Source of the DNA: Kiritimatiellia bacterium
Lineage (GTDB): Bacteria > Verrucomicrobiota > Kiritimatiellia > JAQICX01
Assembly (NCBI GenBank): GCA_027858345.1
Contig: JAQICX010000242.1
Coordinates: 2,787 to 66,786, forward strand
Length of the DNA: 64,000 bases
Direction of reading: 5' to 3'
Part shown: piece by piece, positions 5,982 through 33,823 of the stretch
How the letters are laid out: each line of letters begins with the position of its first letter
How positions within the stretch are numbered: position 1 is the first letter of the stretch
Translations under genes and position numbers: made by a program
Notes under the pieces: model-generated
Seen by the model: only the letters and a program-made list of their open reading frames with translations
Database searches by the model: none
Told to the model about the DNA's origin: nothing

Positions 5982-6842
5982 CTACCCTAACATATGCATA
6001 AAACTACTTAACAACAAGTTAGCAAGTAATCTATGTAAAATTTGTAGACCAAATATAAAGAGTAGAGGTGTTAAGTCGAAAGGACCAATTTGCAGATGTA
6101 CATTTTTTAATGGACCCATTATGAAATATAACCAACTTCGACTAAAGGCTGCCAAGTTTGGTGAACCTGTAAACAATGAAATCCAGGAAAAAATAATTAA
6201 GACAATACAAAAATTATATAGCATACTCAAAACACCAATCAGCTCATATAGTGTTGATATCAGCATTAAAACAACATTAAACCCTACTTTGTTTTGCATA
6301 TATCCATTTGCACTTTCATATAATGGACTAATAAAATTCATTACAACTAATAATACAAACACAAAAACAAATAAAACAATAGGTCGAGTGTTTCTTGTTA
6401 GGAAACTAAATGGTTTTGCAAGTATGAAAAACACAGTCTCTTCTGATGTGCACTTTTCTTCGGTATCATGGACATAAAGCGTTGCTAAAGCAAAGAATGG
6501 TATCAGAAACTTTATAAACACAACAAAACTAAAAGCAACTGCAATTGGAATGCTGTTAACACTTAGGTTCCACTCTAAAAAGCCGATTGATACCCCTCCA
6601 TGAAAAAGTGGTTTCAAGAAAGCACGAAGTACTAATAACAAAAACATTGCAATTAGTGCTGTATACTTCATGGACAGCTGTCCTGTCAGTGGGCGTAAGT
6701 AGTTGAGGGCTTTAGAGGTGTAACCCATTATGGAGCTTAGGTAGGGATTAAAAAAAATCTTTCTATCTTTGCTGCTCCAGAAATATATCCAAAAAAGCAT
6801 TACCAAAACATTAAAAATTATATTCCATCTATTTAGCATCAA
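5982..6842 (-). CDS. integral membrane protein (multi-TM; possibly YggT-context family)
   Basis: Very hydrophobic 286-aa ORF sitting upstream of the yggU-like gene. Family not confirmed. Confidence 0.45.
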   Translation of the reverse strand: MMLNRWNIIFNVLVMLFWIYFWSSKDRKIFFNPYLSSIMGYTSKALNYLRPLTGQLSMKYTALIAMFLLLVLRAFLKPLFHGGVSIGFLEWNLSVNSIPIAVAFSFVVFIKFLIPFFALATLYVHDTEEKCTSEETVFFILAKPFSFLTRNTRPIVLFVFVFVLLVVMNFISPLYESANGYMQNKVGFNVVLMLISTLYELIGVLSMLYNFCIVLIIFSWISLFTGSPNLAAFSRSWLYFIMGPLKNVHLQIGPFDLTPLLFIFGLQILHRLLANLLLSSFMHMLG

Positions 6843-6927
6843 ATCATTCCTATATTATTGTTAAATCTCAATTATAACAACATGCAGCATTTTTTAAAAG
6901 ACAAAAAAGTTCACCTTCTTTTTTAAC

Positions 6928-7058
6928 CGTAATTTTTCGGTTGGCTACAGCTATGACAACGAGGATCCCGCTCTGCGGGATCGCTCCCAGCATGCAACCA
7001 ACCGTTGTCTTGGAAAAACGGGAGAGATCCCGCAGGGCGGGATCCCCATTGTCATAAG
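6928..7058. repeat. MITE-like element fragment with TTTTTCGGTTG terminus and gatcccgctctgcgggatc palindrome
   Basis: Left end aatttttcggttgg. Internal palindromes gatcccgctctgcgggatc and gatcccgcagggcgggatc. Same module at 31865-31895. Confidence 0.5.
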
Positions 7059-7286
7059 AAATTATTTTTTAACTTTATCACCAAAAACAGCAAAAACTCA
7101 AAGCAAAATCCCTGATTTTATTGACTAAAATCCATGCTTATATTCTCAACCAGAAAAATAGGGTTAAAAAGTTGATTTGGTTCGCACCTGACCATTAATC
7201 ATGATTCGCTTTTAAACATTTTTTCATCTTCATCGCATATGTTACATCACGATTTGCTTCCTTGTTTTGTCTTTTCCAGAAAGCTA

Positions 7287-8492
7287 CTAGTTAGATGAAC
7301 CAAGTTCTTCTATCAAATCAATGATAATGCAGTTGCGTTCGTACTCCATATTAATATTTTGTATGGCACTTTTGAGAAGTTGTTCCCGAATAATCATCTG
7401 GTCACGAAGCTTATCCAGTGGCAAACCATCAAACTGCTTCAGGTCAGATTGCAGTTGCTCCAGTAAGGGGGTAGTGAGACGCTGGTGCTTTTCGATTTGT
7501 TTCGTAAATTTTTCTAATGCAGCAAGCAGGCTTTGAATATGTTCTTTGATGATTCGCCTTTGCAATGCCATTTCTGATTCTGTTAGAGTTTGCTGTTTTC
7601 GATAAACGGCGAGATCCGGGTTGCGGTTTCCCCAGGGAAGCGTAAAGGCAGCTGAAATATTCCAGCTATCCTCTCCGTTGCCTGTTTGGTCAATTTTATA
7701 TTCAGGCTGAATGTATTTGAAGTGGAAGCCGCCTTTTGATCGAGCAATTTTGGTGGCTTCCTTTAGAGATTGAGCTTCCACATCAAGTTGGCGATAATCG
7801 GCTCGATTTTCCAGCGCGTCCTGTATCAAAGAGTCGAGTTCGAGGCGAGTTGGTTGTTCAATAATTGCTTTCTTAGCCAGGTCATTAAGGTCGGCTGAAG
7901 CTCCAAAAATCTGATGCAGCTGAGTCTGTATTGCAAGATGTTTTACTTCAATTTTTTCAAGGGAGTTCAGAAGGTCTAAATATTGCCCATAAAGTTTGGC
8001 TCGGTCTATGGTTGCGAGTTGGTGTTGTTGCACGCTGATGTCAGCCTGTTTCAGGTAGGGGGCAAGAATATCGGCTTCTGCGTTCAATAGAGCAATCTGT
8101 TTGTTGAGCATTCGGTAGGTACAGAAGGTGCGATAGACCTCAATTAGTTCCTTCCACTCTAATGTCGCAACTCGTAGCTCTTCTGATTGGCCAACGAGGT
8201 TGAGTTGATTGCGCAATGCCCCCCGTGTCCAACGATTTGGGAAATAAAACCGCAATGCTAGTTCGCTCTCGTTTTCACTGTAGCTGGGGCGAAACTCCAT
8301 GCTGTAATCAGTATCACTGCTTGCTTTTACGGCGGCCTGCTTGACAGCTGTTGACTCTTCTAAAAGGGTGCGTTCTGTCAGTGGCTGCAAAGCCTCCGAC
8401 AAATCATCCGTCCAAACATTTAAAACTGCCAGAAAAAGACTGGACAATGATATGAAAATTATTTTGTTTTTCATTTTAGTTTTCCTAACCAC
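7287..8492 (-). CDS. TolC-like outer membrane efflux protein (OMF)
   Basis: Signal peptide and long coiled-coil/helical repeats at a size typical of the OEP family. Overlaps the upstream HlyD gene. Confidence 0.5.
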   Translation of the reverse strand: MVRKTKMKNKIIFISLSSLFLAVLNVWTDDLSEALQPLTERTLLEESTAVKQAAVKASSDTDYSMEFRPSYSENESELALRFYFPNRWTRGALRNQLNLVGQSEELRVATLEWKELIEVYRTFCTYRMLNKQIALLNAEADILAPYLKQADISVQQHQLATIDRAKLYGQYLDLLNSLEKIEVKHLAIQTQLHQIFGASADLNDLAKKAIIEQPTRLELDSLIQDALENRADYRQLDVEAQSLKEATKIARSKGGFHFKYIQPEYKIDQTGNGEDSWNISAAFTLPWGNRNPDLAVYRKQQTLTESEMALQRRIIKEHIQSLLAALEKFTKQIEKHQRLTTPLLEQLQSDLKQFDGLPLDKLRDQMIIREQLLKSAIQNINMEYERNCIIIDLIEELGSSN

Positions 8493-9490
8493 TGATCGAT
8501 GATTGAGACATTTGGAACCATAATGACTCTCTCCCCGGGGGGTAATTCTACGCCGTCATCGAGTTCAATCACGATGCGTCGACCTCTCAAAATTTGATCA
8601 CTGAATCCGGTAAATACAGGTAGCTTGCGAATGTCAGCTGTTATGTTTTTAATTGTGCCTATGTGAACTTTGCGAGTGGTTATTGTGATAACCTGGCATT
8701 TTTCGCCCTCGTCAATTACAGTTCGTTGCTTTTCCGGCATGAAGGCTATGATTGTTGAGGTTGATATATTACTGATACGTAACACAGGCTCACCTGTTTT
8801 AATGACATCTCCCGGTTGATGTAATATTTCTGCTACTATTCCGGAGGTGATAGCTTTCAACTGGCACTGTTCTTTGAGCAGTTGTTTCAAGTTGTCAGAG
8901 TTGAATGTTTCGATATTTGTCTGTGCGGATGCAAGTCGCTTTTCAAGGCTGGCAGTGAGTGCCGGATAGAGAGTTAACATTTTTTTTGTGGTTTGGATTT
9001 GTGGACGTAAGTCTTCACTATTTTGTTCGAGCAGCAAGTTTTTCTCCATAAGGTTTTGAGTTCGTTGCCATCTGCTTTCCAAAATCTGTAGTTCTGAGGC
9101 AGTTTGGGCCTCTTCCAGTTTTAGTTTCTCAAGGTCGTATTGTATTGAGTAAATTTTATCCCGTGTTTTCATGAGGGAGGCCTGATCCATTAACATGTCT
9201 GTGGATTTGGAAGCGTTGTCGAGTTCACCGAGTAACTGTCCGGCATGAACTTGCTCGCCCATGTCGACCATCAAAACTTTTAGTCGACCATTCTCCAACG
9301 GAGAAACATATTCATAAGTTCGTTCGGCAACTCCATGGAACTGAACTCGATTCAAACCACCAGGAAGCAATAAAACAACTGCAAGCGCGACACTTAACCA
9401 TATAATCCAAGGCCAACCTCTAAACAGCATTTTCAACAGGTGGTGACGACCATGACGAAGGGGACGTCGTTTGAATTTCTTGTCTATCAT
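8471..9490 (-). CDS. HlyD-family membrane fusion protein (periplasmic adaptor)
   Basis: N-terminal TM anchor, biotinyl/lipoyl-like hairpin (LKVLMVDMGEQVHAGQLLGELD), long coiled coil and a C-terminal beta-barrel region. Confidence 0.7.
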   Translation of the reverse strand: MIDKKFKRRPLRHGRHHLLKMLFRGWPWIIWLSVALAVVLLLPGGLNRVQFHGVAERTYEYVSPLENGRLKVLMVDMGEQVHAGQLLGELDNASKSTDMLMDQASLMKTRDKIYSIQYDLEKLKLEEAQTASELQILESRWQRTQNLMEKNLLLEQNSEDLRPQIQTTKKMLTLYPALTASLEKRLASAQTNIETFNSDNLKQLLKEQCQLKAITSGIVAEILHQPGDVIKTGEPVLRISNISTSTIIAFMPEKQRTVIDEGEKCQVITITTRKVHIGTIKNITADIRKLPVFTGFSDQILRGRRIVIELDDGVELPPGERVIMVPNVSIIDQWLGKLK

Positions 9491-9506
9491 AATAATAAAG
9501 CTCCTG

Positions 9507-10203
9507 TTAAAGTTCCACGGTTGTACGTTGCATAACCAAGCTCACTTCGCTAGTAGAATCAAGTGCTTCGAGTTTTTTAACAATATCTACCTGATAAGAC
9601 GGATCGACTAGCCTTACCTGATAAGAGTATTCAAGAAGATCTCCCTGAACAGCTTCGCGCATGCTAAGAAGCATATAGGCAGAACAACACTCGGTCAAAA
9701 TTGCATCAACTCCCACACGAGCAGTATCGCAATCTGCATTAACTAAAAATCGGAGCATCGCCTCATAGCGACGCCGAGTTGCAAATGGAGCCCAGTGAAG
9801 TAAAACAATAACTGAACTCAACAGAACACAGCCGACAACCGCAACCGAAAACATGCCGGCTCCACAGGCAATACCTAGCCCAAGCGCTGCAAACAGAAAC
9901 ATCATATCACGAGGATCTCGGACGACGGTTCTAAAACGAATCAGAGATAGAGCGCCAAGGACTCCAACACCACGGGCGATGCTGTCCCCCCATTGACATC
10001 ATTACCATACAGGTAATCATCCCTCCCAAAATTAGCGTATGTACAAAAGAGCGCGAATACGAGAGTGACTGAAAAGTAAGCTGATACAACTTTGCAATAA
10101 TTGAGCATAGTACAAAACTCAATAGCATTGCTGCAATCACATGTTGCAGACTCAGACTTTGTGCAGTGCCTACTGAAGATAAAAAACTAGACCAACTATT
10201 CAC
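9507..10203 (-). pseudogene. DUF4956-like membrane protein split by a frameshift at a C6/G6 homopolymer (9986-9991)
   Basis: Two adjacent ORFs (9931-10203 and 9507-9905). The downstream frame stays open back to 9999 and reads ...DSIARGVGVLGALSLIRFRTVVRDPRDMMFLF. A 1-nt shift in the cccccc run joins them into about 230 aa. Confidence 0.4.
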
Positions 10204-10218
10204 TATATATATTCTCCT

Positions 10219-11034
10219 TTATGTTAAAATTAATTGATCATCAAAAGGGGCTTCCCCCACACCTGTTAAAACGTTTTCCATCCATATGGCATTGGAATAT
10301 TTGCAATTGCCTCGACGTACCAGTTCAAATTCCTGCACGAGATCTAAAATCCAGATTGGAACATGTTCTGTACATTTGATTTCCATTACCAGCGATGATT
10401 CTCGACTACCATGAACCATTCCACTGTCCATGGTGATGAACCGACCTCCATCACCCCAGTTATACATATCGCGTGCTGGCTGATAGCAAAGCTTAGAATC
10501 GAAAGTGACTCTTGCATAAAAGTCTGACATACTTACGAATGCTTCGCGACTATAGCGAACATAAACCTGTGGTTCTGCTCCAAGCTCATTAGTAAGTCGT
10601 ACAAATTCACGAAAGGTCTCTCGCTCTTTGACCGTTTTAAGCTCCAATTCATCAACCCGTTTTTTAAGAATTCCTGGTGCCCAAGCATCTGTTGGAATGC
10701 AGGCACGCGATTTAATTACCTTATCGAAATATTTACGTTTGATTTCGAGAAATACAGGTGCTTTGCCTGGCGGATCACCATAAGTTCGCACCCGCAGTTT
10801 AAAGCGCTGTGGAGCTTCCCACTCTTTGGCAAAGTGTAATGAAAGTGCTGAATTGTCAAATTGTAGCGTAGTGATTGTGTAGTGTCCTCCTGCTGCAGCA
10901 CAATGCTTATCTTTCACACAATATGGACGTATAAAGTCTTTGATTGGCTCAACTAAATGACGTGGAATTATGTATTTTGCCTCGAAACGATCCAGCTCCG
11001 TGGAAAAATCAGAACTTCTATTTATACTATTCAT
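10219..11034 (-). CDS. VTC-domain (CYTH-like, polyphosphate polymerase domain) protein
   Basis: About 270 aa, soluble, with an N-terminal FEAKY and basic tunnel-type residues. Assigned partly from size and from its context with DUF4956 and CotH. Moderate confidence. Confidence 0.45.
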   Translation of the reverse strand: MNSINRSSDFSTELDRFEAKYIIPRHLVEPIKDFIRPYCVKDKHCAAAGGHYTITTLQFDNSALSLHFAKEWEAPQRFKLRVRTYGDPPGKAPVFLEIKRKYFDKVIKSRACIPTDAWAPGILKKRVDELELKTVKERETFREFVRLTNELGAEPQVYVRYSREAFVSMSDFYARVTFDSKLCYQPARDMYNWGDGGRFITMDSGMVHGSRESSLVMEIKCTEHVPIWILDLVQEFELVRRGNCKYSNAIWMENVLTGVGEAPFDDQLILT

Positions 11035-11896
11035 TATTTCTCCGAATTAGGGCGAAAGTATATTCCTTAGCATTCAATTTCATGGTGCAGGCTCTATAGA
11101 GCATGCCATTGTATCTTTTTTCTGTATTACCCATAAAGTTTATTTTTTTCATTATTCCACAGTTAGTATACGAATATTTGTAAAAATATTATCAACATAA
11201 AGTGTAAATTTAAGAGGTTTCACAATCCATTTTGACACCAAAGTAAAAATACAGAACCCCCTATATAAAAGCATACTATAATAAAATACTTGGTAATGCA
11301 ATGGCGTAATTTATTGTTAACATAAATAAAACATAAAAAACACAAAAACATAATACTATAATGATATATTAATAAAAAAAAATTTAACAGTGATTTCTCT
11401 TATTATCACTATAAAGATACTTAGAGCGGCAAAGCCAGCTACTATCGTTTATCAACGGCTTGCTCCGCAAGCGGCCGTCCCACTTTCTTAACTCTTATCC
11501 CATAACTCTTACCTGTTACTAACCATATTGTCGTCGTAGAAATGGGGTTGTTTCCTTCAAAATTAAACATGTACAAAGTACAGGCAGGCAACCCGTCTGG
11601 GAATATCATGACGAGGTGACAAAATATCAGCGGGTGCAGCAATGCCCCGCTTCTTTCATGCAGTAAAATATCAAGTCAGTCATAACCGAATGAGAAATCT
11701 TACGATCAGCTAGACATTTTTTAAATCAATTTAATGCAAAAATTACTCAAACGGTCGCAACCTCTGTATCTCTCTATGATGTCTTCGCTAATCCAGCTAC
11801 TTGTTAAGTAGCTGGACGATGACATCGTGGAAATACGACCTTTTTGTACCGCTTTAATTTGAACATGCCGTACCTTTTTAATTTGATCCGCAACGG

Positions 11897-14800
11897 CTAC
11901 GGCTCAAGCTCAAGCCAGACACGACCGCGGAAGAAGTTTCCCGGTGCTTCGTCTATCCGGTTGGTATAGCTGACGGATTGTCCCTCGCCCGCCATCTTGG
12001 ACAGCCCAGTCACCTTCTGCCAGACACCAGTCGTCAGATCGTCCGCCTGCTCTAGTGCATAGTACCGAAGGCCACCCAAGCCGTAGAAACCGCCGGCTGG
12101 CACAGTCGGGAAAGACACCACCGCTGTTCCGTTGCTCATGCCGATCCCGAGCCGGAACACGCTTTGCGAGTTCACTGCGTCTGTTCCCGCCACGTACTCC
12201 TGTGCATTGGGTGCTCCGTCGCCGTCCAAGTCCGCCTGTTCGTGTTCTGCAAACTGATTCGTCCAGGCTGGATTAAGCTGGTTCAGCCACGCCTCCGGTA
12301 TGCCGGAAGCCGTCAGATTGGCCAGAAAATCGGCTGACAGGGCATGTTCGTCCCACACATTCGTAAACGCGACGTTCATCAGAGGCCCTGTTGCAAGCCC
12401 ATCCAACATCACCGAGCCGACTCCATAGAACTGGTCGGGCAGAACCACGATATTGGTCGAAGCCCCCACAGGAACCAACACGTCACCTTCAGGCACAACT
12501 CGTCCATGTGAACCGGACTCAGCCGTAATCTTGCGGTACAGCATTGAGTTGTAGGTATCGACCACAATATCATCGACCTGTCCCTCACCCGAGAAGCCGA
12601 CGCTGCTCAAGTAATTGCGATTCGTATTAGCCGCCGCGTACCATACGGACGGATGCGTCACGGGAATGCGGTTGACCCAGATCCGGAACCCGAAGGCTCC
12701 GTTCAAATCGCGGGCATAGTCCGCCATCAGGGTCAGCCGGTTAAAATCGTTCGACGAGACAACTACATCCGTCAATTCGCTACACCGGTTCGTACTGCCA
12801 GCCTGGCCATGCCATACTATTAATTTCTGGTCGCTGTTAACCCAAAGGGCGATCTGCGCCTCTGGAGTAATTTCGACCGGCACCTCATCCTCACCAGGAT
12901 TGAACGCCATGAGCATATCCACACAGACATTGTCCAGCACATCTGTCTGCTCGAACTGCTGAGTAATGCCTCTGTTGAAGGACAGGCCCTGCTTATGCGA
13001 GCCTGCAATCGGACTGTCACCCGGCTCCGCAGCCGTATACCTGTTGGTTTCAACCACTGCGCACTGAGGATCATAACCCTGCCACCCCCCTATGCCGTTC
13101 AACAACGAACCGAGTTCATAATTTTCAAAGGATTCCTTGTAAGGCAAACTATTTGGTGGGTTTACATCGGTGACAGTCACGGTAACGAAACGATTCGTCA
13201 CCAACTGCCCGTAAATCATCGTCAGCATCAATTCATACGTGCCAAGGTGCGTGAAAAACGCCTCCGCATCGGCCTGCGTTGGATTCTCCAACACGACCGA
13301 AGAGTCTCCTGGAGAAGACCAGATAAAGTGGACGGAATTCGTCATCCCGCTCAAAACCTCCGCCGACGCATGCAGACCAACACGATTTGTAAACGTCAGA
13401 TTGACTGTCGAGTTCACCTGTGCCGTAAAAGCAGGGATGTTCGTGTAAACCATAATCCATACCACCGGCGATAGGGCGTCACCCTCGTCATCAATCAGTC
13501 GTGCCGAGAGTGTTCTAACACCCTCGCGTGCCTCCAATGCAATAGTCGCAGTGTACGGAGCGGATGAATCGCTGGCCACATTCGTCCCATCAATAGCAAA
13601 AACCACCTGACTTACCGTGCCAATGATAAAGGCCGGATCCACTTCCGCCGTCACCGTAATCGAAACAGGCGACAGGAATCCAGTATTAGCCAGAGGAGCT
13701 ATCACAGCAACCTTGGCCGGGCCGTATCCAGGGGTCGGATAAATTCCAGCCACCCAACTCGCCGGGTCATCCCCGCTACTCCGACCAGTAAGATGTGTCA
13801 GTGCTCGCCCCGTACCGTCCGCTTCCGCAGGCCAAGGTGCCGCATCGTAATACGTAACCTGGTCAATCACATGCCAGGAAATGTCTTCGATCGGCGCCGG
13901 CGGATCACCAAATACCGGCCGCTCCAGTCGCACGGCGTCGGTCTTGTTGTTCAGTTGCCCGCTATACGGACCCAGCATGCGAATCTGCCCGTTGGACAGC
14001 CCGTAGGCGTCCAGGAAAGCGGTTCGCTTTGCGATGTTGTTCGAGGGATCAAATGATACTACAACCAACCGCTCGCCTGCCGACAAAACCGTATTGCTGG
14101 GAAACAGATACCCGATGCCACCAGCCAGACGCCAAGCACCCCCCACGTCGTTGACGATGTTCGTCAAAGCGATTGCCTGCGCCGTCGGGTTGTACAACTC
14201 GACGAATTCGTCGTTTTCGTTGTTCTCAGGATTAGCTGTAGTCGGCTTGGGATGGTACATGATCTCGGAGATTACCACGCTGGCGGCGGTCAACCGGTTC
14301 GAGGCGCCGGGCGTCGGGACGCCATAGAACCAGGACGCCGCCCCGTCGGGATACCGGATCAGCGGCACGCCATTCTCCTCGCCCTTGATGGACACGGCGT
14401 CCACCACGCGGTCCGTCGCTCCCGTGCCCATGCCCGGCAGGTAGGACAACAGCACCTGCTCGTCCGCCTTGTTCAGGCCGAACCCGTTGGTGATCGGATT
14501 ATGAAAATCATGGATTTCGTCAAAATAACGCCACTCGTGTGCCGCGAGCGTGTTGGTCGCCGGAATCGCCCACTTGGTCAGTTCCTCCAGATCGTCGCTC
14601 AGATACCACCCGGAACCCAGCGGGATCGGAGCCGCGGTCACGTTGTATAGTTCGATACCGTCGTTGGAGTCGTAGGGCGGGCTGTCGATGTCCGTGTGTG
14701 CCAAAATCTCGTTCAGCACCAGCGATGCGGCGGGCGCAACCGGCTCGGCCTCGCCCGGCGACCCGCCAATGTAGACACTGGCCTTCCAGTTGCCGGGATA

Positions 14801-17800
14801 GTCCAGTTCGCCGTCCGCCTGCGTCACGTCTGACAGCGGTACAAGCGAATGCCCCGCGCCGTCGGCCGCCGGCAGCCACTTGTCATTGTAAGTGAACGAC
14901 ACCACGTTGCGACCGAGCGCGTCTTCGATCTCGATCTTCTCGCCGGCGTTGTCGAGACTGGTTGACGGAAAGACGAACGCGCCGGCGATCTTGCCGACAG
15001 CCACCGTCGGATACCTGTTCGTGAACGCAATGATGTTCTTGACCACCAGCACATACTCGTCGGGATTCAGGACGGTTACGGCGCTCTCCGTGAAATCGAA
15101 CGCCACGCCCTGGGTGAAATGCAGACCGGTTAGACCGATGGGCGCGGTGCCGGCGTTCTGCAACTCGATGAATTCGTCGTCGCCGTCCAGACAGCTTTCG
15201 CCGCCGACCGATACCGGCTGGCGCGGGTGAAACATCAGCTCCGTCACCCGCAGGTCCGGCTTGTCGGCCAGCGTGAACACCGCCTCGGTCAGGGCACTCC
15301 ACTCGCCACCCGCCGAGAGCGCACGGGCCTTGACGTGCACCGTGCGCGTCAACGGCACGGCCGCGGAATACAACGTCCCCGTCGCCGCTCCCGTGCCATA
15401 CTGACGCGGATCGGAGCCGTCCAGCGTGTAGTAAATCGGGTTCCCAGCGGTCACAACCAAATTAAAGCTGTTGTCGAACAGGCCACCAAATTGGCTGAAC
15501 TCTGGTGCGTCCACGGCAGGATAAAGTCCATTAGCTTTCAGCATCTGCATGAATATCGCCGGACGCAGAGGCAAGAACGTATTCAACACGTAGTTGCGCA
15601 TAACGCGCCACTGCTCGACCGTATGAGCAGCCTGACCGTCCTGGTCTCCCCAACGTGCACTCTCTGCAACAATGGCCTGCTCAACCTCTTCCGATAGTGC
15701 CTGATAACGTGCAATTGTGACCTCCGGTGTCAATTGCCCGCCATTAAAAAGATATTTATGCACACGGTCGGCGAACCGCAACTTGTATTCCGCATTCCCA
15801 ACCAACCGACCCTGAATCACGGCTACGCCATTGATATCGCCGATCTTGTCAGTATTGAGTGTGCTCCTGTCCAACCCCAATGCCATTTCGGCATCCCAGA
15901 CACCAAACTTGAATCCTGTACTCGCCGAATCGTTCCTGTCGCGGAATGCCCGCCAGTTATTCCCCGGCCAGTCATCAACCGCTAATGCATACTGCACGAT
16001 CATATAGTCAATGTAATTCCCAACATCCAGATAGATTGGATAAGCCAGATTACGCGTGCCGTCCTCATTGTTGCCCTGCACCTTCTGATATGCCGTGTTG
16101 CTACCCTGACCGTTGGCCAGCTCGTCCAGCATAACGTTCCAAGCCGTACCATTGCCGTCTTCTACTCCATCCTGACTGATCACATCCCACGTATCGTCCC
16201 GTCCGCCGCAATAAGAGGCTGCAAACTCACCAGAAATATGTTCCGTCATATTGTAGAGTCCCCAATACAAACCGTTCAAATAAAGATGGACAAAAGTGCC
16301 GTGCGGAGAAACCCCGCCCATGGTAAGATGCGTACGCCGGACGAACTCATCAACAATATACTGCGTCCTTTCATGCCCACTGCTGTTCCAACCGTCATTG
16401 GCCCCAGAACGCAATACAAGATCGTTGAAAGAGCTGACTGCGTTGCCTGAAAAAAGATTTTCCTTCAGATGACCCTCACCATAGATGCTTCTGAACTGAA
16501 ACGTGAACGACTTCTTTCTTGTGGCACCCATGTCCCTGAAATAGCCGCCCTGAACCCGCAAACCGCAATCAATCTGAAACTTGCTGGTGTTGTCAACCTT
16601 GATAAACTCAACCGAAGCCTCGCGTTCCCAATTGTCGCCAGTTCCGAAGGGATTGACGTAAATGCCGGTCGACGAGTCGAACAAGTTCGCCTGGGGCGTC
16701 ACCACAGATATGGTGGGCAGGGAAGTCAGTGCGTTTGTCAGAGCTGCACTGGAACTCGACACGATAATCTGATCCATGCCGTAGTCAGCCGCGGTGCCGT
16801 TCCAATCTGTCGGCCAACCGGACGGCGTTGCGGACTGGCTCAAAACGTCGTCCAGCACGATATAGCTATGGGTATCAATACCCGAGGGCACCCAATCACT
16901 CTTAAATGCAGCCGCACGGATGATGGCGGTGTTAACAAAATTGAACGGTGACGAATAGAGTGAACTGGTGACCGTCGGTTGCTCGGCATTGGTCGTGTAC
17001 CGGATCTGGACTTCGGACATGTCGCAACTCGCCGTCACCTCCGGCACGGCGGTGGTGTACACGCCTCGCTTCAGAGAAAACTTGACCCCGGCCACCTCGT
17101 TACTGGGACTGGAAAACGCATTACCATCCCCCGGCGTCGGCTCAGCAAAATAGCGATACTCCCCGGTGAGACCGATACCGTAGGACATATCGTCGTATTG
17201 CTGGGGGAATTCCGGCACATACTCCGAGAGCACGGTGACACCGTCCGCCTTCACCAGCGCCAGATACTCGCCGTCGCCGCTCAGTTTGAAGTTGGCGTGC
17301 AACTCGTTGTTGGTCACCGAGTACGACTTGTCGTCGGCCCAGACCAGCAGGTAGCCTTTGCCGGGAATGGTAGACGCCGAACCAGCGGGAAACTGCCACT
17401 TCGTAGGCGTAGCCACCTTGTCCGTCAAATACCAACCGGCCAACGACACGCTGGAAGAATTCGGATTGTACAATTCGACCCAATCCCCATACTTGTCCAG
17501 CGAGTTCTTGATCGTCGTGTCATTGAGTGCCATGAATTCGTTTATGACGATATTGGTCACCACATCGGGCAGCCCGGCAATCAGTTCGGGAAGAATCAGC
17601 ATGTCAGAACTTGAACCGAGATTTAACGAGTGAACTGCTAGCACATTAGTGCCGGTCGTCAACTGTGGAAGGAATGACGTAATGTCGTAATTCTGGAAAA
17701 TCATTGCCTGGCTGTCGTCGTGACTGGCCGATGCTCGCGTATCCCAACTGGCTCCAGCCGGTGCATTGACGCGTGCGACTTCAACGCCGTTCAAATAGGC

Positions 17801-18265
17801 AATAAAACCATCATCGTACTTGACTCGCAACGTCAAGGATAAGTAAGTCTTGCCTGTCGAAACTTCGAACGGGAAACGGGTGTAAATAGCAATTGTGTTG
17901 TTTAACACTGTGGTGCCAAATAGTGCTTTATAGGTCTGATTATTGTCGTACCCCAAACCGCTGTGGCCGAAGTTCCACGTTGAATCGTTGAAGGCAGGTG
18001 CAGTCCAGTTCGTGCCGTCCAAACCATTCGCCGGCACCTGATACTGGCATGCAGCACCGGATGCCACCAGGGGCTCGTCCAGCGCCAACACCGAGCCGGC
18101 AGCAAGCCCAATACCCATCGCAATAAGAAGTGTCAACAAAAGCCCCAGCCGTTTCATACACCTTTGCATCATTGCCGATAGCATCCAATAGCCCGAACAG
18201 AAACGGTCGACCGACTCGTAGTTCTGCGTGCACAGAATTCGTTCCATGTTTGTCATTTCATTCAT
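11897..18265 (-). CDS. giant secreted CotH-family (atypical protein kinase fold) protein with four lamin-tail domains and a C-terminal Ca-binding-like DLDGDG repeat
   Basis: Four LTD signatures: INEFMA...WVELYNPN...LAGWYLTD, VTELMFHP...EFIELQN, VLNEILAH...GIELYN, VISEIMYHP...EFVELYNP. CotH core: LRSGANDGWN...TQYIVDEF...HLYLNGLYWGLYN. Signal peptide MKRLGLLLTLLIAMGIGLAAGSVLA. GC content is far above the flanks. Confidence 0.65.
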   Translation of the reverse strand: MNEMTNMERILCTQNYESVDRFCSGYWMLSAMMQRCMKRLGLLLTLLIAMGIGLAAGSVLALDEPLVASGAACQYQVPANGLDGTNWTAPAFNDSTWNFGHSGLGYDNNQTYKALFGTTVLNNTIAIYTRFPFEVSTGKTYLSLTLRVKYDDGFIAYLNGVEVARVNAPAGASWDTRASASHDDSQAMIFQNYDITSFLPQLTTGTNVLAVHSLNLGSSSDMLILPELIAGLPDVVTNIVINEFMALNDTTIKNSLDKYGDWVELYNPNSSSVSLAGWYLTDKVATPTKWQFPAGSASTIPGKGYLLVWADDKSYSVTNNELHANFKLSGDGEYLALVKADGVTVLSEYVPEFPQQYDDMSYGIGLTGEYRYFAEPTPGDGNAFSSPSNEVAGVKFSLKRGVYTTAVPEVTASCDMSEVQIRYTTNAEQPTVTSSLYSSPFNFVNTAIIRAAAFKSDWVPSGIDTHSYIVLDDVLSQSATPSGWPTDWNGTAADYGMDQIIVSSSSAALTNALTSLPTISVVTPQANLFDSSTGIYVNPFGTGDNWEREASVEFIKVDNTSKFQIDCGLRVQGGYFRDMGATRKKSFTFQFRSIYGEGHLKENLFSGNAVSSFNDLVLRSGANDGWNSSGHERTQYIVDEFVRRTHLTMGGVSPHGTFVHLYLNGLYWGLYNMTEHISGEFAASYCGGRDDTWDVISQDGVEDGNGTAWNVMLDELANGQGSNTAYQKVQGNNEDGTRNLAYPIYLDVGNYIDYMIVQYALAVDDWPGNNWRAFRDRNDSASTGFKFGVWDAEMALGLDRSTLNTDKIGDINGVAVIQGRLVGNAEYKLRFADRVHKYLFNGGQLTPEVTIARYQALSEEVEQAIVAESARWGDQDGQAAHTVEQWRVMRNYVLNTFLPLRPAIFMQMLKANGLYPAVDAPEFSQFGGLFDNSFNLVVTAGNPIYYTLDGSDPRQYGTGAATGTLYSAAVPLTRTVHVKARALSAGGEWSALTEAVFTLADKPDLRVTELMFHPRQPVSVGGESCLDGDDEFIELQNAGTAPIGLTGLHFTQGVAFDFTESAVTVLNPDEYVLVVKNIIAFTNRYPTVAVGKIAGAFVFPSTSLDNAGEKIEIEDALGRNVVSFTYNDKWLPAADGAGHSLVPLSDVTQADGELDYPGNWKASVYIGGSPGEAEPVAPAASLVLNEILAHTDIDSPPYDSNDGIELYNVTAAPIPLGSGWYLSDDLEELTKWAIPATNTLAAHEWRYFDEIHDFHNPITNGFGLNKADEQVLLSYLPGMGTGATDRVVDAVSIKGEENGVPLIRYPDGAASWFYGVPTPGASNRLTAASVVISEIMYHPKPTTANPENNENDEFVELYNPTAQAIALTNIVNDVGGAWRLAGGIGYLFPSNTVLSAGERLVVVSFDPSNNIAKRTAFLDAYGLSNGQIRMLGPYSGQLNNKTDAVRLERPVFGDPPAPIEDISWHVIDQVTYYDAAPWPAEADGTGRALTHLTGRSSGDDPASWVAGIYPTPGYGPAKVAVIAPLANTGFLSPVSITVTAEVDPAFIIGTVSQVVFAIDGTNVASDSSAPYTATIALEAREGVRTLSARLIDDEGDALSPVVWIMVYTNIPAFTAQVNSTVNLTFTNRVGLHASAEVLSGMTNSVHFIWSSPGDSSVVLENPTQADAEAFFTHLGTYELMLTMIYGQLVTNRFVTVTVTDVNPPNSLPYKESFENYELGSLLNGIGGWQGYDPQCAVVETNRYTAAEPGDSPIAGSHKQGLSFNRGITQQFEQTDVLDNVCVDMLMAFNPGEDEVPVEITPEAQIALWVNSDQKLIVWHGQAGSTNRCSELTDVVVSSNDFNRLTLMADYARDLNGAFGFRIWVNRIPVTHPSVWYAAANTNRNYLSSVGFSGEGQVDDIVVDTYNSMLYRKITAESGSHGRVVPEGDVLVPVGASTNIVVLPDQFYGVGSVMLDGLATGPLMNVAFTNVWDEHALSADFLANLTASGIPEAWLNQLNPAWTNQFAEHEQADLDGDGAPNAQEYVAGTDAVNSQSVFRLGIGMSNGTAVVSFPTVPAGGFYGLGGLRYYALEQADDLTTGVWQKVTGLSKMAGEGQSVSYTNRIDEAPGNFFRGRVWLELEP

Positions 18266-18500
18266 AGTGTTTTTTCTTTTTTTTAATTTTACAATCCACC
18301 GTGATGAAAACTTTTTCTAAAAGTTTTTCTCGCTAACGTGTTAAGCTCACGGGCGGCGGTACGCCGTACCGTGAAGCGATTTGTTAAAATTTATTTTCTA
18401 TTTTCGAATACTGATTTACTAAAAACTAATAACTTTTACTCACCAATTAAAACAAATTTTTTAAATCTTTTAAATCTTTTTTTTAACAATTATTATACGA

Positions 18501-18660
18501 CCTTAATTTTTCGGTTGAACACACTTTTTGGCGGGGTCACGGACCCCGACCCTACAGTTGCGGATGCTGCAACCAAAGCTAAATCCTTGATTTGCAAGTA
18601 TTTTGTAGGGTCGGGGTGCTTCACCCCGCCAGCCAAGGCATTCAATCTAAAAATTGAGGT
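18501..18660. repeat. BIME-type MITE: two inverted GTAG-REPs (ggcggggtcacggaccccgaccctacag / tgtagggtcggggtgcttcaccccgcc) flanked by TIR ccttaatttttcggttgaa ... tcaatctaaaaattgagg
   Basis: Read directly from the sequence. An inverted, partly degraded copy lies at 22541-22745. Confidence 0.65.
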
Positions 18661-18699
18661 ATTTATTTGAACTGTACACTTTTTATAGGAGACAAAAAA

Positions 18700-21600
18700 T
18701 TATATTTTTCTGAGGATATCATTAACTTTCTTTGTGAATTTCACAAGAGAGAATGGTTTTTCCAAGAAATGAAACCCTTTTTTGTTTAGAGATGACTTCT
18801 TAATTCTCTCTTCTGAATAGCCACTGCATAATAATATTGGTAGGTTCGGTTTTTGTTTTGCAACGATTTCAGCTAAATCCGGTCCAGAACGACCTGGAAG
18901 AATAACATCGCTTATTAACAAATCAAAATCACCTTTGTTTTCCTTGAAAATTTCTTCTGCTAATTCGGCATCATGGGCAGTTTTAACTCTGTAACCAGCG
19001 TTCTCAAGAGCCGTGGTCATTAATGATAGTATTGATGGGTCATCTTCCACAACTAGAATATGTTCGCCGTTACCAATCTTGTTGACTTCTTTGCTGGTGC
19101 CTTCGACCGTCATACTTTGCACTTTCTTCTCACATGCTGGAATATAAATTTTAAATGTTGTCCCCTTATCAACTTCACTATAAGTGTTTATCCAGCCATT
19201 ATATCTTTGAATTGTAGCATATGTTGAAGCTAATCCAAGTCCAGTTCCTTTAGAACGCCCCTTTGTTGTGAAAAATGGTTCAAAGATATGAGTAATTATT
19301 TCATCTTTCATACCTGTGCCTGTGTCAGTGATTGACATGCATACATAGCTTCCTGCGTGTATTGTTGGGTTGGCTAAAGCATCCCCTGTTGTAAATTCAA
19401 CATTATGTGTCGCAATGTTGATCACTCCACCATTTGGCATGGCATCGCGAGCATTAATAGCCATGTTGATAATTATTCGATCAATTTGCTGCTTGTCTGC
19501 TTTAACAACATATAGTCCTGGGTCGAGTGTTGTGTTTATCTTAATATTCTCGCCAACAGCACTCTTAATAATTTTTTCTGTACCTTTGACAGTTGCGTTT
19601 ATATCAATGTCTGATGTATGCACTTTTTCATCACGGCTGAAAAGTAGAAGTTGTTTTGTCAAATCAAAAGCATGTCCGGCTGCCTTTTGAATTTCATCTA
19701 AACTGCTTTTTGCAACTTCGTCATGATCAATCTCAATCATTAGCAGTTCGCTGAACCCAATAATAACCTGCATGATGTTGTTGAAGTCATGTGCAATTCC
19801 TCCCGCAAGCTGTCCAACTGCTTCCATTTTTTCGGCATGTTGAATTTTTGTTTCATATGCAATCTCATCGGTGATATCACGTTTGATGGCAACAAAATTG
19901 GTTATATACATGTTGGAATCAAGTACTGGAGATATTGTTGCCCACTCTGTATATAGTTCGCCATTTTTACGCTTGTTTATTAAACGACCTTCCCAAGTCT
20001 TTTTGGAGGTGATTACATTCCACATGTTTTCATAGAATTCAGCATCATGTTTGTCACTCTTTAGTACTCTTGGATTTTCTCCAATAGCTTCTTGTTTACT
20101 ATAACCGGTTATTTTTTCAAATGCAGGGTTTACATATTCAATTGTACCTTCACTATCAGTGATAACAACGGTATCCGAAAATTGTTCAATAGCTGCAGAA
20201 AGTCTGCGAAGTTCTTTAGTTCTATTGTTTTCATCTGCAATAAAACGAGCTTGCTGTATGTTTTGAAGTGCTGATGAGGACAGTTGTTTTGTCAGGTCGC
20301 AAAGTGCTTTGTTTATTTTGTGAAGTTGATTTTCGCTTATTACAGGCACTTTTTTGAATTCCTTGAGGAAAGACTCTTCATCAATACCAATGTTTCTCGC
20401 TTTACATAGCATTTGCTCTTCTGTCTGTGCATCATTTCTAATCTGTCCAAATAGCCAGGAAGCAATATGTTTATCTCCTGCATAGATATTTGCACTTAGT
20501 TCCCACAATCCTGTTTTGGGACATATGTAGATGTAAGAATCGTCAGTAAATTCCTCGGGTTGTATTTGAGAAAAATTTATTTTATAGCTCTCAACCAAAC
20601 TTAGTGACTGATGTTCTAGTATCATGGTGCATAGATATGGATAATTACTTGGTTTAGTTATTGGTGTTCCATCTGGTGAAACAATTATTGATGCCAAGTT
20701 CATTGCAGCTGCAAAATTATCCTGTGTTTTCTGTATGTCGGCTATGTTGAACAACTCTTCAAATGTTATGTTATTGATATCTTCTTTTGGACTGGTTAGG
20801 GTTAATATACGATTTTCAATTGTCTGCTGCAGTTCTTTTTGCGTTGTTATGTCGCGAATTATAGAGCATATCAATTGAGAATCTTCAAAATCAAGAAAGT
20901 TTTTGGTAACTTCAGTAGGGAATGTTGTTCCGTCTTTTTTACAGTGAATTCTCTCTAATTTAACATACTTTTTCGTTTTGAGTTCATTCCATATACTATC
21001 CCAGTTTTCATAGTTATTTTCATTGTCTAAATCATAGATATGCATAGAAAGTAGTTCTTGTTTGCTATATCCATATAACTCAGAGACAATATCGTTCACA
21101 TAGACAATTTGTCCTTCAATGTTGCTCCAAATCACAACATCTGCCAGGTTATCAACAGCAAATTGTGTCTGTTTAAGCTGTTTCTCAAGTTGTTTCTGTC
21201 CTGTGATATCACTGAATGTAACCGCAAAGTGATTTGGTGCGGTGCGGAATGCTCTAACTGAATAGTATCTCTTAAGTTCACTTGAGTAGTTGTCGTAAAG
21301 AATTGTTCTGCCCGTGTTTACAACTTTTTCAAATGCTTCAATCCAGTAGTCTTCTGTTCCAGGTAATGCTTCTTTTACCGTTTTTCCAATTAGGCTATCT
21401 GCTTTTAAACCTGTTAAATCCTCAAAAGCTGGATTAACTTGAAGATATCGATAATCCACCGCTTTTCCATTCTCATCATAAATCATTTCGTGCAGAGCAA
21501 ATCCCACAGGAACATTTTCGAAAAGAGTTCGGTATCTTTCTTCACTGTCGGTCAGCAATTTATTTGCATTACGTTCAGCGGTCTGGTCTCCGAATGCCAT

Positions 21601-22540: not shown

Positions 22541-22745
22541 GCGGGGTGATCACTCTTCGCCCAGCTATTAACGATATAATAAATCTTGTTAGTAGCTGGG
22601 CTACGCCTAACACAGAGCACCTTGAAGGAAAACCCTACAAAACACCTGCGAATCAATCTTTTAGCTTTGATTTCAGCATCCGCAACTGTAGGGTCGGGGT
22701 CCGTGACCCCGCCGAAAAGGGCATTCAACCGAAAAATTGAAAGGG
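22541..22745. repeat. inverted copy of the 18501-18660 BIME-type MITE (first REP degraded)
   Basis: About 90% identical to the reverse complement of 18501-18600. Ends tcaaccgaaaaattgaaagg. Confidence 0.6.
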
Positions 22746-25331: not shown

Positions 25332-25960
25332 AGATAAAGATAAAGATTAAGGTTGAGATGCTGGCTGTTTGCCAGCGGAATTAAGGAAATCATATCTTGA
25401 CTTTCTTCGAGGTCTGCTGACCGCGGCTACAGCTGTTCTTCCGCAAATCAAGCTTATCTTTTTGCACCATTCTGTAGGGTCGGGGTCCTTGACCCCGCCA
25501 AATCGTCGGTCATCGCCCGCCGCTATCCGCCTTCGTTCCTACGGCGCGACAGGCAGGTGTTGAGCCTGAAAACCAGCCTTAGTCCGCAAAAGCTCCTCCC
25601 TCTTTTAGGGGAGGTGGCGATCCCGCTACCACTTTGCATTTTTTAAGCAAAGTGGCGGCGGGAGAGACGGAGGGGTGTTCATTCAAAATGGAAGTTGGAC
25701 GTTCTATGTTCTCAACTATAATAAATACCGCCGGCCTGTCACGCCGTAGTCCGCCAAAGCTCCTCCCCGGCTAGCTTTGCTAGTCCCGCTCTGCGGGAGG
25801 AGGTGTCCGAGGAACGAGGACGGAGGGGGTCTTCATTTAATATTGGATGTTGAACGTTATATTCTTGTCTTTTTGCATCAAACTGTAGCTGACCTCCGCA
25901 GAGGTCGGAAAGCTGGCAACGCCAGCCCTCAACCTCAACCTTAATCTTAACTTTTCTGCG
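25323..25960. repeat. composite repeat region with inverted termini (aagataaagattaaggttgagatgctggc ... gccagccctcaacctcaaccttaatctt), containing a GTAG-REP (25482-25509), the gctaccactttg...caaagtgg hairpin and three gacggaggggt modules
   Basis: Read directly from the sequence. Module homologues at 3530-3660, 26470-26590 and 33824-33871. Confidence 0.5.
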
Positions 25961-31761: not shown

Positions 31762-32085
31762 TAATTTTTCGGTTGAGACACTTTATGAGAACGTTTTTCA
31801 TGCCGTCACGCAGGTGACCGTTCTCGCTCCCGTTTTTCCAAGACTACGTTTGTTTGTATGCTGGGAGCGATCCCGCAGAGCGGGATCCTCGTTGTCATAT
31901 TAACTTGTTTTGTTTTCAGATATGAAAAGCCATTTGGCGGGGGCACGGTTCCTGACCCTACAGTCGCACCCCTCAGTCACGCAAGCGTGACAGCTCCCCT
32001 TAGCAAGGGGAGCAGTTCTGGTTTGCTTGACGCTTTCGCAGCTCATAACACTAAGGTGAGGAGGGCTCTTTTATAATAAATGCCT
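31762..32085. repeat. MITE-like composite element (TIR-like left end, gagaacg-loop-cgttctc hairpin, gatcccgcagagcgggatc palindrome, degenerate GTAG-REP, gtcacgcaagcgtgacagctcccc...ggggagcag module)
   Basis: Shares cactttatgagaacg with elements at 48910, 51722 and 54405. Confidence 0.55.
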
Positions 32086-33767: not shown

Positions 33768-33823
33768 GCAATTTAGGCAAACTAAACGTTGTCGGGGTAT
33801 GGTGCGAATTTATTTGTACCACG

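Follow-up and report, generated by a model that had tools for sequence, protein, structure and literature searches.

A conserved VTC–DUF4956–adaptor–TolC-type channel operon in Kiritimatiellia, Lentisphaerae and Verrucomicrobia and its possible role in polyphosphate export

We found that the genes for a VTC-type triphosphate-tunnel enzyme, a DUF4956 membrane protein, a periplasmic adaptor (MFP) and a TolC-family channel (OMF) form an operon that is conserved across Kiritimatiellia, Lentisphaerae and Verrucomicrobia, a combination absent from the literature searched. Reasoning by analogy, we see about an even chance that the four genes act as one unit that couples the synthesis of polyphosphate to its export by way of an EmrA/TolC-like duct. 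The window, that is, the whole stretch of 64,000 nucleotides analysed, comes from a Kiritimatiellia bacterium and carries the following features.

11897..18265, minus strand: giant CotH/LTD gene, from its Pfam domains
11035..11896, no strand: AT-rich spacer separating the CotH and VTC genes, from sequence and GC
10219..11034, minus strand: gene for the VTC-type triphosphate-tunnel enzyme, from PF09359
9507..10203, minus strand: DUF4956 gene, frameshifted, from PF16316 after repair
9986..9991, no strand: G6 run with an extra base (C6 on the plus strand), the frameshift site
8471..9490, minus strand: MFP (periplasmic adaptor) gene, from HlyD_D23 and HlyD_3
7287..8492, minus strand: TolC-family OMF gene, from family-profile matches
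7023..7047, minus strand: terminator-like hairpin and T-run, a consensus match only

A check of the ORF positions confirmed the co-oriented minus-strand block of five genes described, with its coordinates, in an earlier sequence-only reading, as well as the 860-bp spacer, which measures 862 nt (GC 0.346). The 4–22 nt overlaps proposed in the same reading hold for the MFP/OMF pair, the only overlapping genes (by 22 nt if translation starts at the GTG at 8492, or by 4 nt if it starts at the ATG at 8474, the start chosen in the JGI gene call), whereas VTC and DUF4956 are separated by 15 nt and DUF4956 and the adaptor gene by 16 nt. The promoter of the four-gene operon is probably located in the spacer, which contains an inverted repeat (CCAGCTACT..AGTAGCTGG) after the stop codon of CotH; promoter-like matches in a scan of positions 6700–18800 were not above chance, and the spacer showed no trace of a former CotH gene. 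An indel variant of the spacer is present in assembly L087. The GC-rich terminator-like hairpin, followed by the T-run, lies some 240 nt past the OMF stop, in overlap with the end of a dispersed repeat of 76 nt.

The four-gene linkage extends far beyond the window, as testified by a neighbourhood survey of 84 related loci, nearly all with a PVC label. The gene order is VTC-DUF-MFP-OMF in 62 loci, VTC-DUF-MFP in 11, VTC-DUF in 7 and MFP-OMF-VTC-DUF in 3, and VTC lies directly upstream of DUF4956 in 83 of the 84. Among the 66 loci whose downstream flank measures 3.2 kb or more, 62 carry the MFP and 56 the OMF; four lack both and another six lack the OMF, and the duct is therefore not obligatory. 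The genes are tightly packed (median gaps of 12 nt from VTC to DUF and 13 nt from DUF to MFP), and the block is kept despite differing flanking genes and permuted internal order. The VTC-DUF-MFP-OMF order is repeated in dozens of species-level genomes, among them that of the cultured species Pontiella desulfatans, and in metagenome contigs with a VTC of no more than 44–49% identity. In more distant loci, the specific MFP family follows DUF4956 in three of four cases, with 86–119 bits against 25 bits for an RND adaptor used as a control of the profile, and an Hc1-bearing, chlamydia-like contig carries DUF4956-MFP-OMF with no VTC gene alongside; these distant loci favour DUF4956 as the component with which the adaptor works. 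The recurrence of the gene order exceeds chance.

Clustering of all flank ORFs returned the four operon families and the LTD/CotH giants as the only recurrent families, with no recurrent ABC, RND or MFS gene within 10 kb and no transporter among the next commonest neighbours examined. The lack of a pump gene reported for the window is thereby generalised, and the objection that a conventional transporter is the real partner of the adaptor and channel genes therefore does not overturn the linkage. It is also highly improbable that the adjacency is functionally meaningless and that the MFP and OMF work with an unlinked pump elsewhere in the genome. TolC-family genes are indeed frequently unlinked from their pumps, but the present linkage recurs across three PVC classes, with genes about 12 nt apart, even where their order is permuted and the flanks differ, and in all the contexts examined this MFP family was seen only beside DUF4956.

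The window VTC is a soluble protein of 271 aa that matches PF09359 at 111.2 bits (cut-off 23 bits). When its AF2 model (pLDDT 84.7) is compared with the PDB by Foldseek, the top 13 matches are all yeast VTC tunnel domains, from Vtc4, Vtc3 and Vtc2 (E about 4e-13 to 2e-10, TM 0.57–0.69), whereas non-VTC tunnel enzymes follow at E 3e-7 or worse; the modelled fold is thus closest to yeast Vtc4, far ahead of other tunnel enzymes. In the family alignment K20, Y161, R163 and E218 are invariant and conservation reaches 90% or more at R81, R83, K99 and K245, and together these residues match the spacing of Vtc4 K200, R264, R266, K281, Y359, R361, E426 and K458, a correspondence drawn from motif spacing rather than from residue-level structural alignment. 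K458 is the residue that distinguishes active Vtc4 from inactive Vtc2/3 (10.1101/2023.01.27.525886). The window VTC is predicted to be a polyphosphate polymerase; a literature search turned up no biochemical evidence for polyphosphate synthesis by any bacterial VTC-domain protein.

In the window DUF4956 is split into two ORFs, 9931–10203 (90 aa) and 9507–9905 (132 aa), neither of which matches DUF4956 in a Pfam search. The split results from a +1 frameshift, an extra G in the G6 run; deletion of one G yields a 231-aa protein that matches PF16316 at 43.5 bits (cut-off 30.6 bits). The split ORFs are repeated in three other JGI assemblies of the same population, 99.9% identical. Since 73 of 75 orthologues have only 2–3 G at this site, the run does not represent a recoding site conserved in the family. 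One population variant also bears a deletion within the MFP gene. On the basis of the frameshift and this deletion, the window copy of the four-gene system may be inactive or decaying.

The repaired DUF4956 is an inner-membrane protein with five helices and a C-terminal ACT-like domain, and the family carries the invariant arginine motifs SYSRS, IRFRTxxRDPRD and RRR. A solved or characterised relative of its membrane part was sought and none was found. Its helical membrane domain, ACT-like C-terminus, weak PF02308 match and JGI name 'YhiD' liken it to MgtC/YhiD/SapB, from which it differs in belonging to a separate Pfam family (PF16316), in its particular set of invariant arginine-rich loops and in being paired with VTC, usually along with the adaptor. 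MgtC-family proteins are known as regulators, not channels, a point against the export reading. This kinship leaves room for an unlikely alternative in which the four genes form one unit with a cargo other than polyphosphate: DUF4956, MFP and OMF would move another ion or metabolite in an MgtC/YhiD-like physiology (Mg2+, acid or phosphate stress), and VTC, acting as a triphosphatase or a sensor, would regulate the unit or supply it with energy. Tunnel enzymes do include triphosphatases and cyclases, and the distant chlamydia-like locus manages without an adjacent VTC. Against it stand the near-constant position of VTC directly upstream of DUF4956, a fold much nearer to Vtc4 than to triphosphatases, and the retention of the lysine that marks active polymerases.

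The window MFP (339 aa) passes the thresholds of both HlyD_D23 (39.8 bits) and HlyD_3 (40.6 bits). It is composed of a basic N-terminal tail, one TM helix and lipoyl, hairpin and barrel domains, a layout of the EmrA/HlyD class, and its family profile best matches EmrA (PDB 4TKO, E 1.9e-25), followed by MexJ, type-I-secretion adaptors, MacA and HlyD. Adaptors of this type pair with inner-membrane proteins of little periplasmic bulk. The OMF is 401 aa long when read from the GTG and 395 aa when read from the ATG at 8474. Alone it reaches 18.7 bits against OEP, under the 22-bit cut-off, whereas a profile of 45 orthologues, window copy included, matches OprJ, CusC, SilC, VceC, TolC and OprM over nearly the full length (E 4e-19 to 1e-10), and precomputed PF02321 matches exist for more distant orthologues. 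Among the domain calls proposed from the letters, those for CotH, LTD, VTC and HlyD are upheld by Pfam, that for DUF4956 only after repair, and OEP fails on the single sequence. The gene families of the operon, their folds and their conserved linkage are established.

EmrAB-TolC and HlyBD-TolC, in MFS- or ABC-driven efflux and type I secretion, likewise combine a TM-anchored adaptor and a TolC-family channel encoded with an inner-membrane component; here VTC and DUF4956 replace the MFS, ABC or RND transporter, and the substance exported is presumed to be a polymer synthesised locally. We regard it as rather improbable that polyphosphate is placed only in the periplasm or envelope, for storage or cation buffering, with a structural or venting role of MFP/OMF instead of bulk secretion. 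Transfer across the cytoplasmic membrane is evidently of use by itself, as VTC-DUF4956 occurs without outer-membrane parts in four PVC loci (L032, L035, L048 and L050) and in the Gram-positive sets discussed below. Yet most well-flanked loci keep a full adaptor and TolC-type channel, and a pair of this kind normally builds an unbroken passage out of the cell.

The giant CotH product (2122 aa) contains four LTD domains (138.7 bits), a CotH domain (71.1 bits, residues 570–893), two CHB_HEX_C_1/Fn3_assoc domains and Big_7, and is predicted to be exported, since its N-terminus bears a hydrophobic signal-like segment, MKRLGLLLTLLIAMGIGLAAGSVLA. Its family profile matches B. cereus CotH (PDB 5JD9, E 3e-5), with N770 and D791 invariant and D765 near-invariant in the catalytic-loop and metal-binding motifs. 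The gene has a GC of 0.556 and a GC3 of 0.66, compared with 0.37–0.45 in its neighbours, and its product shares 69% identity with L030 across 1754 aa and 70% with L037, both high-GC Verrucomicrobiota MAGs, compared with about 37% with the copies of the close relatives Pontiella and Tichowtungia. By its composition and these identities, the gene is a high-GC xenolog, a replacement acquired horizontally.

Of 32 loci with full flanks, 15 have a giant LTD/CotH gene near the block and 17 have none, and the side and strand of the gene vary. The giant gene is a loosely linked accessory with its own transcription unit; the proposed fusion of the CotH/VTC/DUF4956 trio with MFP and OMF in one operon thus stands for VTC and DUF4956 and not for CotH. 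Its presence near almost half of the blocks is what favours the earlier suggestion that MFP/OMF secrete or anchor the CotH kinase in the manner of type I secretion. We consider this very unlikely, because the signal-like segment indicates export by Sec, which sets the protein apart from type I substrates, the block has no linked ABC exporter gene, and many blocks lack CotH; moreover, its placement varies and L032 has CotH beside VTC-DUF4956 without MFP/OMF.

That the trio recurs with no assigned function, as stated in the sequence-only reading, is documented: these genes (with or without DUF4832) accompany Gram-positive pel operons (10.1101/768473; 10.1101/2024.04.20.589940), and the trio lies in NELoc-2 of C. 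perfringens (PMC2879425). The same three families occur together there, but in monoderm hosts without MFP/OMF; neither pel genes nor DUF4832 were found near the window locus, where CotH is a multi-LTD giant dispensable for the conserved block.

In the preferred reading, polyphosphate export, we infer that the proteins form a physical complex, that the product is polyphosphate and that it leaves the cell. VTC, DUF4956, MFP and OMF would make up one apparatus across the envelope, driven at the inner membrane by a polymer synthase with a small membrane protein in place of an ABC, RND or MFS pump. Soluble VTC would make polyphosphate from ATP in the cytoplasm, like yeast Vtc4, and dock onto a DUF4956 oligomer whose cytoplasmic loops carry the invariant arginines; the chain would be threaded through the inner membrane, aided by polymerisation and the inside-negative membrane potential, with the ACT domain as a putative regulatory sensor. 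The adaptor and channel would then take the chain past the periplasm and outer membrane, and the Sec-exported CotH/LTD protein, a frequent but separable accessory, may act at the cell surface, either on the exported product or together with it.

Yeast VTC (Vtc4/Vtc3/Vtc1), which shares the catalytic family and the closest fold, couples synthesis to translocation via a channel lined with basic residues, a cytoplasmic tunnel polymerase on a membrane channel feeding a polyanion towards the electropositive side (PMC9911596). The bacterial enzyme differs in being a free protein with neither SPX nor a fused Vtc1-type (3-TM) membrane domain, its five-helix membrane partner is unrelated, and two added genes span the periplasm and outer membrane. 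In synthase-dependent exopolysaccharide secretion (cellulose Bcs, alginate and Pel), inner-membrane polymerisation is likewise coupled to dedicated periplasmic and outer-membrane parts with no separate pump; the presumed polymer here is inorganic, and the exit is an adaptor and TolC duct instead of a TPR/β-barrel porin. If the proposal is true, the Kiritimatiellia, Lentisphaerae and Verrucomicrobia that carry this operon would make polyphosphate and expel it from the cell.

The cluster at 7287-18265 of the window consists of five genes, all on the minus strand and in the same orientation. The sequence-only reading had described it as a CotH kinase gene followed by VTC, DUF4956, HlyD-type adaptor and TolC-type outer-membrane channel (OMF) genes joined by overlaps of 4-22 nt. 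This gene content is largely correct, except that the DUF4956 gene is frameshifted, most of the overlaps are wrong and the OMF scores weakly as a single sequence.

Features of the gene cluster, in the order of transcription
11897-18265, minus strand: CotH giant, 2122 aa, with four LTD stretches, two CHB_HEX_C_1/Fn3_assoc pairs, a CotH domain and Big_7
862 nt: AT-rich spacer after the giant, GC 0.35
Minus strand: VTC protein, 271 aa, PF09359 at 111.2 bits
9931-10203 and 9507-9905, minus strand: the two ORFs of the split DUF4956 gene, between VTC and the adaptor
Minus strand: HlyD-type adaptor, 339 aa, HlyD_D23 and HlyD_3 above cut-off
Minus strand: OMF, 401 aa, OEP at 18.7 bits, below the cut-off of 22

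The adaptor and OMF genes are the sole overlapping pair (22 nt, or 4 nt with an ATG start), while the remaining junctions of the VTC-DUF4956-adaptor-OMF block are gaps of 15-16 nt. Promoter and terminator scans of the locus gave no matches above chance. By Pfam, the flanks of the block encode a PAS/PocR histidine kinase, EamA, YggT/YggU-like, AraC, LpxA and BamB proteins. The kinase is a 1142-aa hybrid (18700-22128) that directly precedes the CotH gene on its strand and combines several PAS domains with a PocR sensor and a receiver domain; histidine kinases are found near the block again in a few other loci. Dispersed, partly palindromic intergenic repeats of 55-107 nt (76-93% identity) flank the cluster and other genes, with copies at 18505-18611 and 22632-22738, at 6952-7027 and 31824-31899, and at 25443-25502, 49867-49923 and 50370-50440; the copy downstream of the OMF gene overlaps a terminator-like hairpin. 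The window is probably core chromosome rather than a mobile element, because the sizes and order of the ORFs at 32412-45525, together with the tRNA-Thr and tRNA-Trp that flank and precede them, fit a tuf-secE-nusG-rplKAJL-rpoBC cluster.

The linkage of the four genes extends across PVC as a conserved operon. Querying one genome per GTDB species with a DUF4956 alignment yielded 214 relatives. Among the best 80 of these 214 loci, a few are labelled only 'bacterium' and all those assigned to a phylum belong to PVC (Kiritimatiellia, Lentisphaerae/Victivallales, Verrucomicrobiales and Limisphaerales), bar one labelled Pseudomonadota. When all locus ORFs were scored with HMMs built from the first five examples, the order VTC-DUF4956-adaptor-OMF was found in 62 of 84 loci, VTC-DUF4956-adaptor in 11, VTC-DUF4956 in 7 and adaptor-OMF-VTC-DUF4956 in 3. 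The neighbourhood survey thus bears out the suggested association: where at least 3.2 kb of downstream sequence is available, the adaptor is present in 62/66 loci and the OMF in 56/66. Median gaps are short, 12 nt from VTC to DUF4956 and 13 nt from DUF4956 to the adaptor, and the genes flanking the block vary between loci. All five genes are present in the cultured Pontiella desulfatans (locus L001), where PDESU_03016 encodes VTC and PDESU_03014 the adaptor, and in a second related locus, L003; the genome scan also recovered the locus of Pontiella sulfatireligans (L021). The window VTC is 100% identical to a protein recorded for a Kiritimatiellae MAG, and the Pontiella proteins are 73-75% identical to it. 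Three further loci (L004, L005 and L089) carry the four-gene block without CotH, and their VTC proteins are only 44-49% identical.

Four loci truly do not have the adaptor and OMF, and MurNAc-recycling genes or YchF come next instead. Others have an adaptor but no OMF call, the next gene being unrelated in both of the two loci checked. In two loci without adaptor and OMF (L032:10623-13857 and L035:10756-13948), VTC-DUF4956 is followed by convergent genes for an AmgK-MurU-like fused sugar-kinase/nucleotidyltransferase and a NamZ exo-muramidase. In six loci, VTC is immediately preceded on its own strand by a member of an ORF family of about 500 aa that has no Pfam match (L045:7563-9167, with counterparts in L047, L048, L050, L067 and L074); the family may be a lineage-specific extra component.

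Conventional tripartite or type I ducts have an ABC, RND or MFS gene encoded alongside, whereas here an adaptor and an OMF occur without such a gene: none was found in the window block, and none recurs within 10 kb of the 84 loci. The absence of a pump gene, as first noticed in the window, therefore holds across the survey, and no conventional transporter emerges as the true partner of the adaptor and channel. When about 1,000 flank ORFs from 85 loci were clustered all against all, only six large families emerged, namely the four operon genes, the LTD/CotH giants and one artefact, a recurrent 'family' in 36 loci that corresponded to antisense shadow ORFs of high-GC genomes and was set aside. 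The clusters ranking below these reach 7 loci at most; those scanned were BamB-like, a histidine kinase, a dehydrogenase, DUF6807, a PPIase, TPR proteins or unknowns, with no transporter among them.

Sampling of the representative search added four DUF4956 loci from more distant lineages. Three of these have a member of the same adaptor family right after DUF4956 (86-119 bits, versus 25 bits for an RND adaptor that served as control and shares a contig with a distant locus); in the fourth, a weak adaptor-like gene lies upstream. The occurrence of this adaptor family next to DUF4956 in distant loci, together with the low score of the RND control, ties the adaptor specifically to DUF4956. At 9001-12041 of L093, a contig carrying a chlamydial Hc1 gene, DUF4956 is followed by the same adaptor family and then by a weak OMF match, and no VTC gene is adjacent to these three genes. 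A distinct RND pump, equipped with an adaptor of its own, lies 5 kb away on this contig. A homologue search for the adaptor returned only close Pontiella-clade relatives.

The HlyD assignment of the adaptor is borne out by HMM, and its family profile matches EmrA best (4TKO, E 1.9e-25), followed by MexJ, type-I-secretion adaptors, MacA and HlyD. The N-terminal tail of the protein is basic, and its single TM helix contains the invariant W26, P27 and W31. The proposed TolC-like nature of the OMF, which the OEP model fails to support on the single protein, is recovered with a 45-orthologue profile (window protein included): it matches 28 TolC-family structures over nearly the full length, with a best E of 4e-19, among them OprJ, CusC, SilC, VceC, TolC, OprM, OprN, MtrE and CmeC.

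The VTC protein matches its domain model far above the cut-off of 23 bits, over 230 of 235 model positions. As a single sequence it finds nothing meaningful in the PDB, and a profile is needed. The top 13 PDB fold matches of its AF2 model (pLDDT 84.7) are all tunnel domains of yeast VTC (Vtc4, Vtc3 and Vtc2), with E values of 4e-13 to 2e-10 and TM scores of 0.57-0.69; Vtc4 comes first (3G3R/3G3Q/3G3T, also 8I6V and 7YTJ, E about 4e-13). CYTH-type triphosphatases and cyclases of archaeal, plant and bacterial origin follow at E 3e-7 or worse and TM 0.47 or lower. The modelled tunnel fold is thus closest to Vtc4 among tunnel enzymes. Vtc4 needs K200, R264, R266, K281, Y359, R361, E426, S457 and K458, and K458 alone separates active Vtc4 from inactive Vtc2/3 (10.1101/2023.01.27.525886). 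Across 27 bacterial homologues, K20, Y161, R163 and E218 do not vary, and conservation is at least 90% for R81, R83, K99 and K245; these residues fit the Vtc4 spacing, the mapping being by motif and spacing, not by structural superposition. The R81/R83 motif was aligned with Vtc2 LRLRW by profile comparison, and the position equivalent to S457 would be C244. Unlike eukaryotic Vtc subunits, which carry an SPX domain and a fused C-terminal 3-TM domain, the 271-aa protein consists of the VTC domain only; judged by this domain content, it is not of the eukaryotic Vtc2/3/4 subunit type.

The DUF4956 gene is broken by a +1 frameshift in a G6 run at 9986-9991, and its reading frame is not intact in the window. 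Neither raw ORF matches PF16316, whereas deletion of one G restores a 231-aa protein that supports the assignment (43.5 bits, cut-off 30.6) and also matches MgtC weakly. The split gene recurs in L086-L088, three near-identical JGI assemblies (samples 3300051638-40; 99.9-100% identical to the window, with few SNPs). Programmed frameshifting was considered and rejected: 73 of 75 orthologues have GGC/GGA at the site, with 2-3 G and no G-run, and there is no conserved recoding signal. A systematic homopolymer error at the G6 run is a less probable explanation. Both halves are still 87-88% identical to intact orthologues, and in L087 the absence of 151 nt (window 8631-8781) splits the adaptor gene as well. 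We read the frameshift, from these comparisons, as a recent inactivating slip accompanied by further signs of decay in the population, and the window copy of the system is probably defective. L087 (JGI 3300051638) also shows a 50-to-160-nt replacement in the spacer, at window 11448-11497, and a shorter CotH N-terminus (2091 aa; window 18251-18360 region); its changes suggest ongoing decay or variation of the locus.

DUF4956 is otherwise very strongly conserved, with 87% identity to Pontiella and 45-60% across PVC. It has no sequence relative in the PDB, and DUF4956-like proteins give 6,294 matches (E ≤ 0.001) among representatives of 50%-identity clusters. By the positive-inside rule, the invariant segments SYSRS, IRFRTxxRDPRD and RRR would face the cytoplasm and form a dense arginine surface.

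The CotH giant behaves differently from the block. Its CotH domain (PF08757, residues 570-893) scores 71.1 bits against a cut-off of 23.8, which upholds the initial assignment. The single sequence gives nothing meaningful against the PDB, and a profile is needed to reach B. cereus CotH (5JD9, E 3e-5). In the alignment to 'NFDGFVHN' and 'WDYD', which we take to be the CotH catalytic motifs, N770 and D791 are invariant and D765 is at least 90% conserved. Where at least 6 kb is available on both sides, LTD/CotH giants are present in 15/32 loci, upstream or downstream of the block and on either strand. This variable placement and presence, together with the hydrophobic signal-like segment at the N-terminus, indicate that CotH is a separable and probably Sec-exported accessory, which stands outside the operon core and is unlikely to travel through the duct. 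The earlier suggestion that the duct secretes or anchors the giant is unlikely for the same N-terminal segment, which speaks against a type I substrate, for want of a linked ABC gene and since CotH is often absent. The spore-coat context of CotH does not apply either: the window has lpxA and bamB-like genes as in diderms, the giant has its signal-like N-terminus and the window VTC is labelled Kiritimatiellae. To our knowledge, PVC bacteria do not form spores.

The CotH gene is a compositional outlier (GC 0.556, GC3 0.66, versus 0.37-0.45 in its neighbours). The window giant is 69% identical over 1754 aa to that of L030 and 70% to that of L037, both from high-GC Verrucomicrobiota MAGs, and only about 37% identical to the Pontiella/Tichowtungia giants, even though VTC and DUF4956 of the latter are 75-89% identical to those of the window. 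These identities indicate that a distant xenolog has taken over the position of the native giant; the spacers contain no remains of an earlier CotH gene. That CotH was exchanged for such a xenolog without a change of position points to a functional tie with the operon, even though the two are separable. A second GC outlier lies at 52021-53742 (GC 0.53 across 52-54 kb, versus about 0.39 for the whole window); its ORF, for a GH36 alpha-galactosidase (Melibiase, 192 bits), may have been acquired horizontally too.

The trio of CotH, polyphosphate polymerase and DUF4956 is on record, with no assigned role, as accessory genes that accompany Gram-positive pel operons and occur in C. perfringens NELoc-2. 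The pel-associated module is contiguous with pelDEA(DA)FG and DUF4832, whereas the window block has neither, pel genes and DUF4832 being absent among the Pfam-scanned flanking genes. The literature searched describes no link of DUF4956 to an adaptor or TolC channel and holds nothing relevant on a bacterial polyphosphate exporter or a VTC-adaptor system; a paper on CotH in a Zetaproteobacteria stalk cluster was unrelated. DUF2490, which we take to be an outer-membrane beta-barrel family, would, if so, be a lead to an alternative outer-membrane partner in Bacteroidota. The B. thetaiotaomicron genes BT3498-BT3499, one entry of an iron-response table, are a neighbouring pair of DUF4956 and DUF2490 genes (PMC10434189).

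With the linkage conserved, the core of the original proposal stands: VTC and DUF4956 would stand in for the pump of an adaptor/TolC system. We know of no machinery for placing polyphosphate outside the bacterial cytoplasm, and of no polymerase-translocase described other than the eukaryotic VTC complex. In yeast VTC, the tunnel polymerase feeds its product straight into a basic-lined membrane channel (PMC9911596). Synthase-coupled export of polyphosphate is the most likely reading of the bacterial operon, and we give it about an even chance, since both product and complex are inferred. A more far-reaching version, which we regard as improbable, is that this is the first dedicated bacterial machine making polyphosphate and exporting it across both membranes, the exported polymer serving as phosphoryl donor (or scaffold) for extracytoplasmic CotH kinases. 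If true, CotH kinases would work where ATP is lacking, fed by exported polyphosphate; this would account for the joint occurrence of CotH, VTC and DUF4956 in monoderms and diderms alike, and for the addition of an adaptor and a TolC channel in diderm PVC bacteria.

The window instance is probably defective, yet it reveals a system whose combination of parts is new and which can readily be tested in cultured Pontiella desulfatans and P. sulfatireligans. An operon joining a VTC-type polymerase to an outer-membrane duct is a concrete candidate for extracytoplasmic placement of polyphosphate. It widens the possible drivers of adaptor/TolC systems to a polymer synthase and a small MgtC-like protein instead of a pump, and provides an entry point to the function of three large uncharacterised families.
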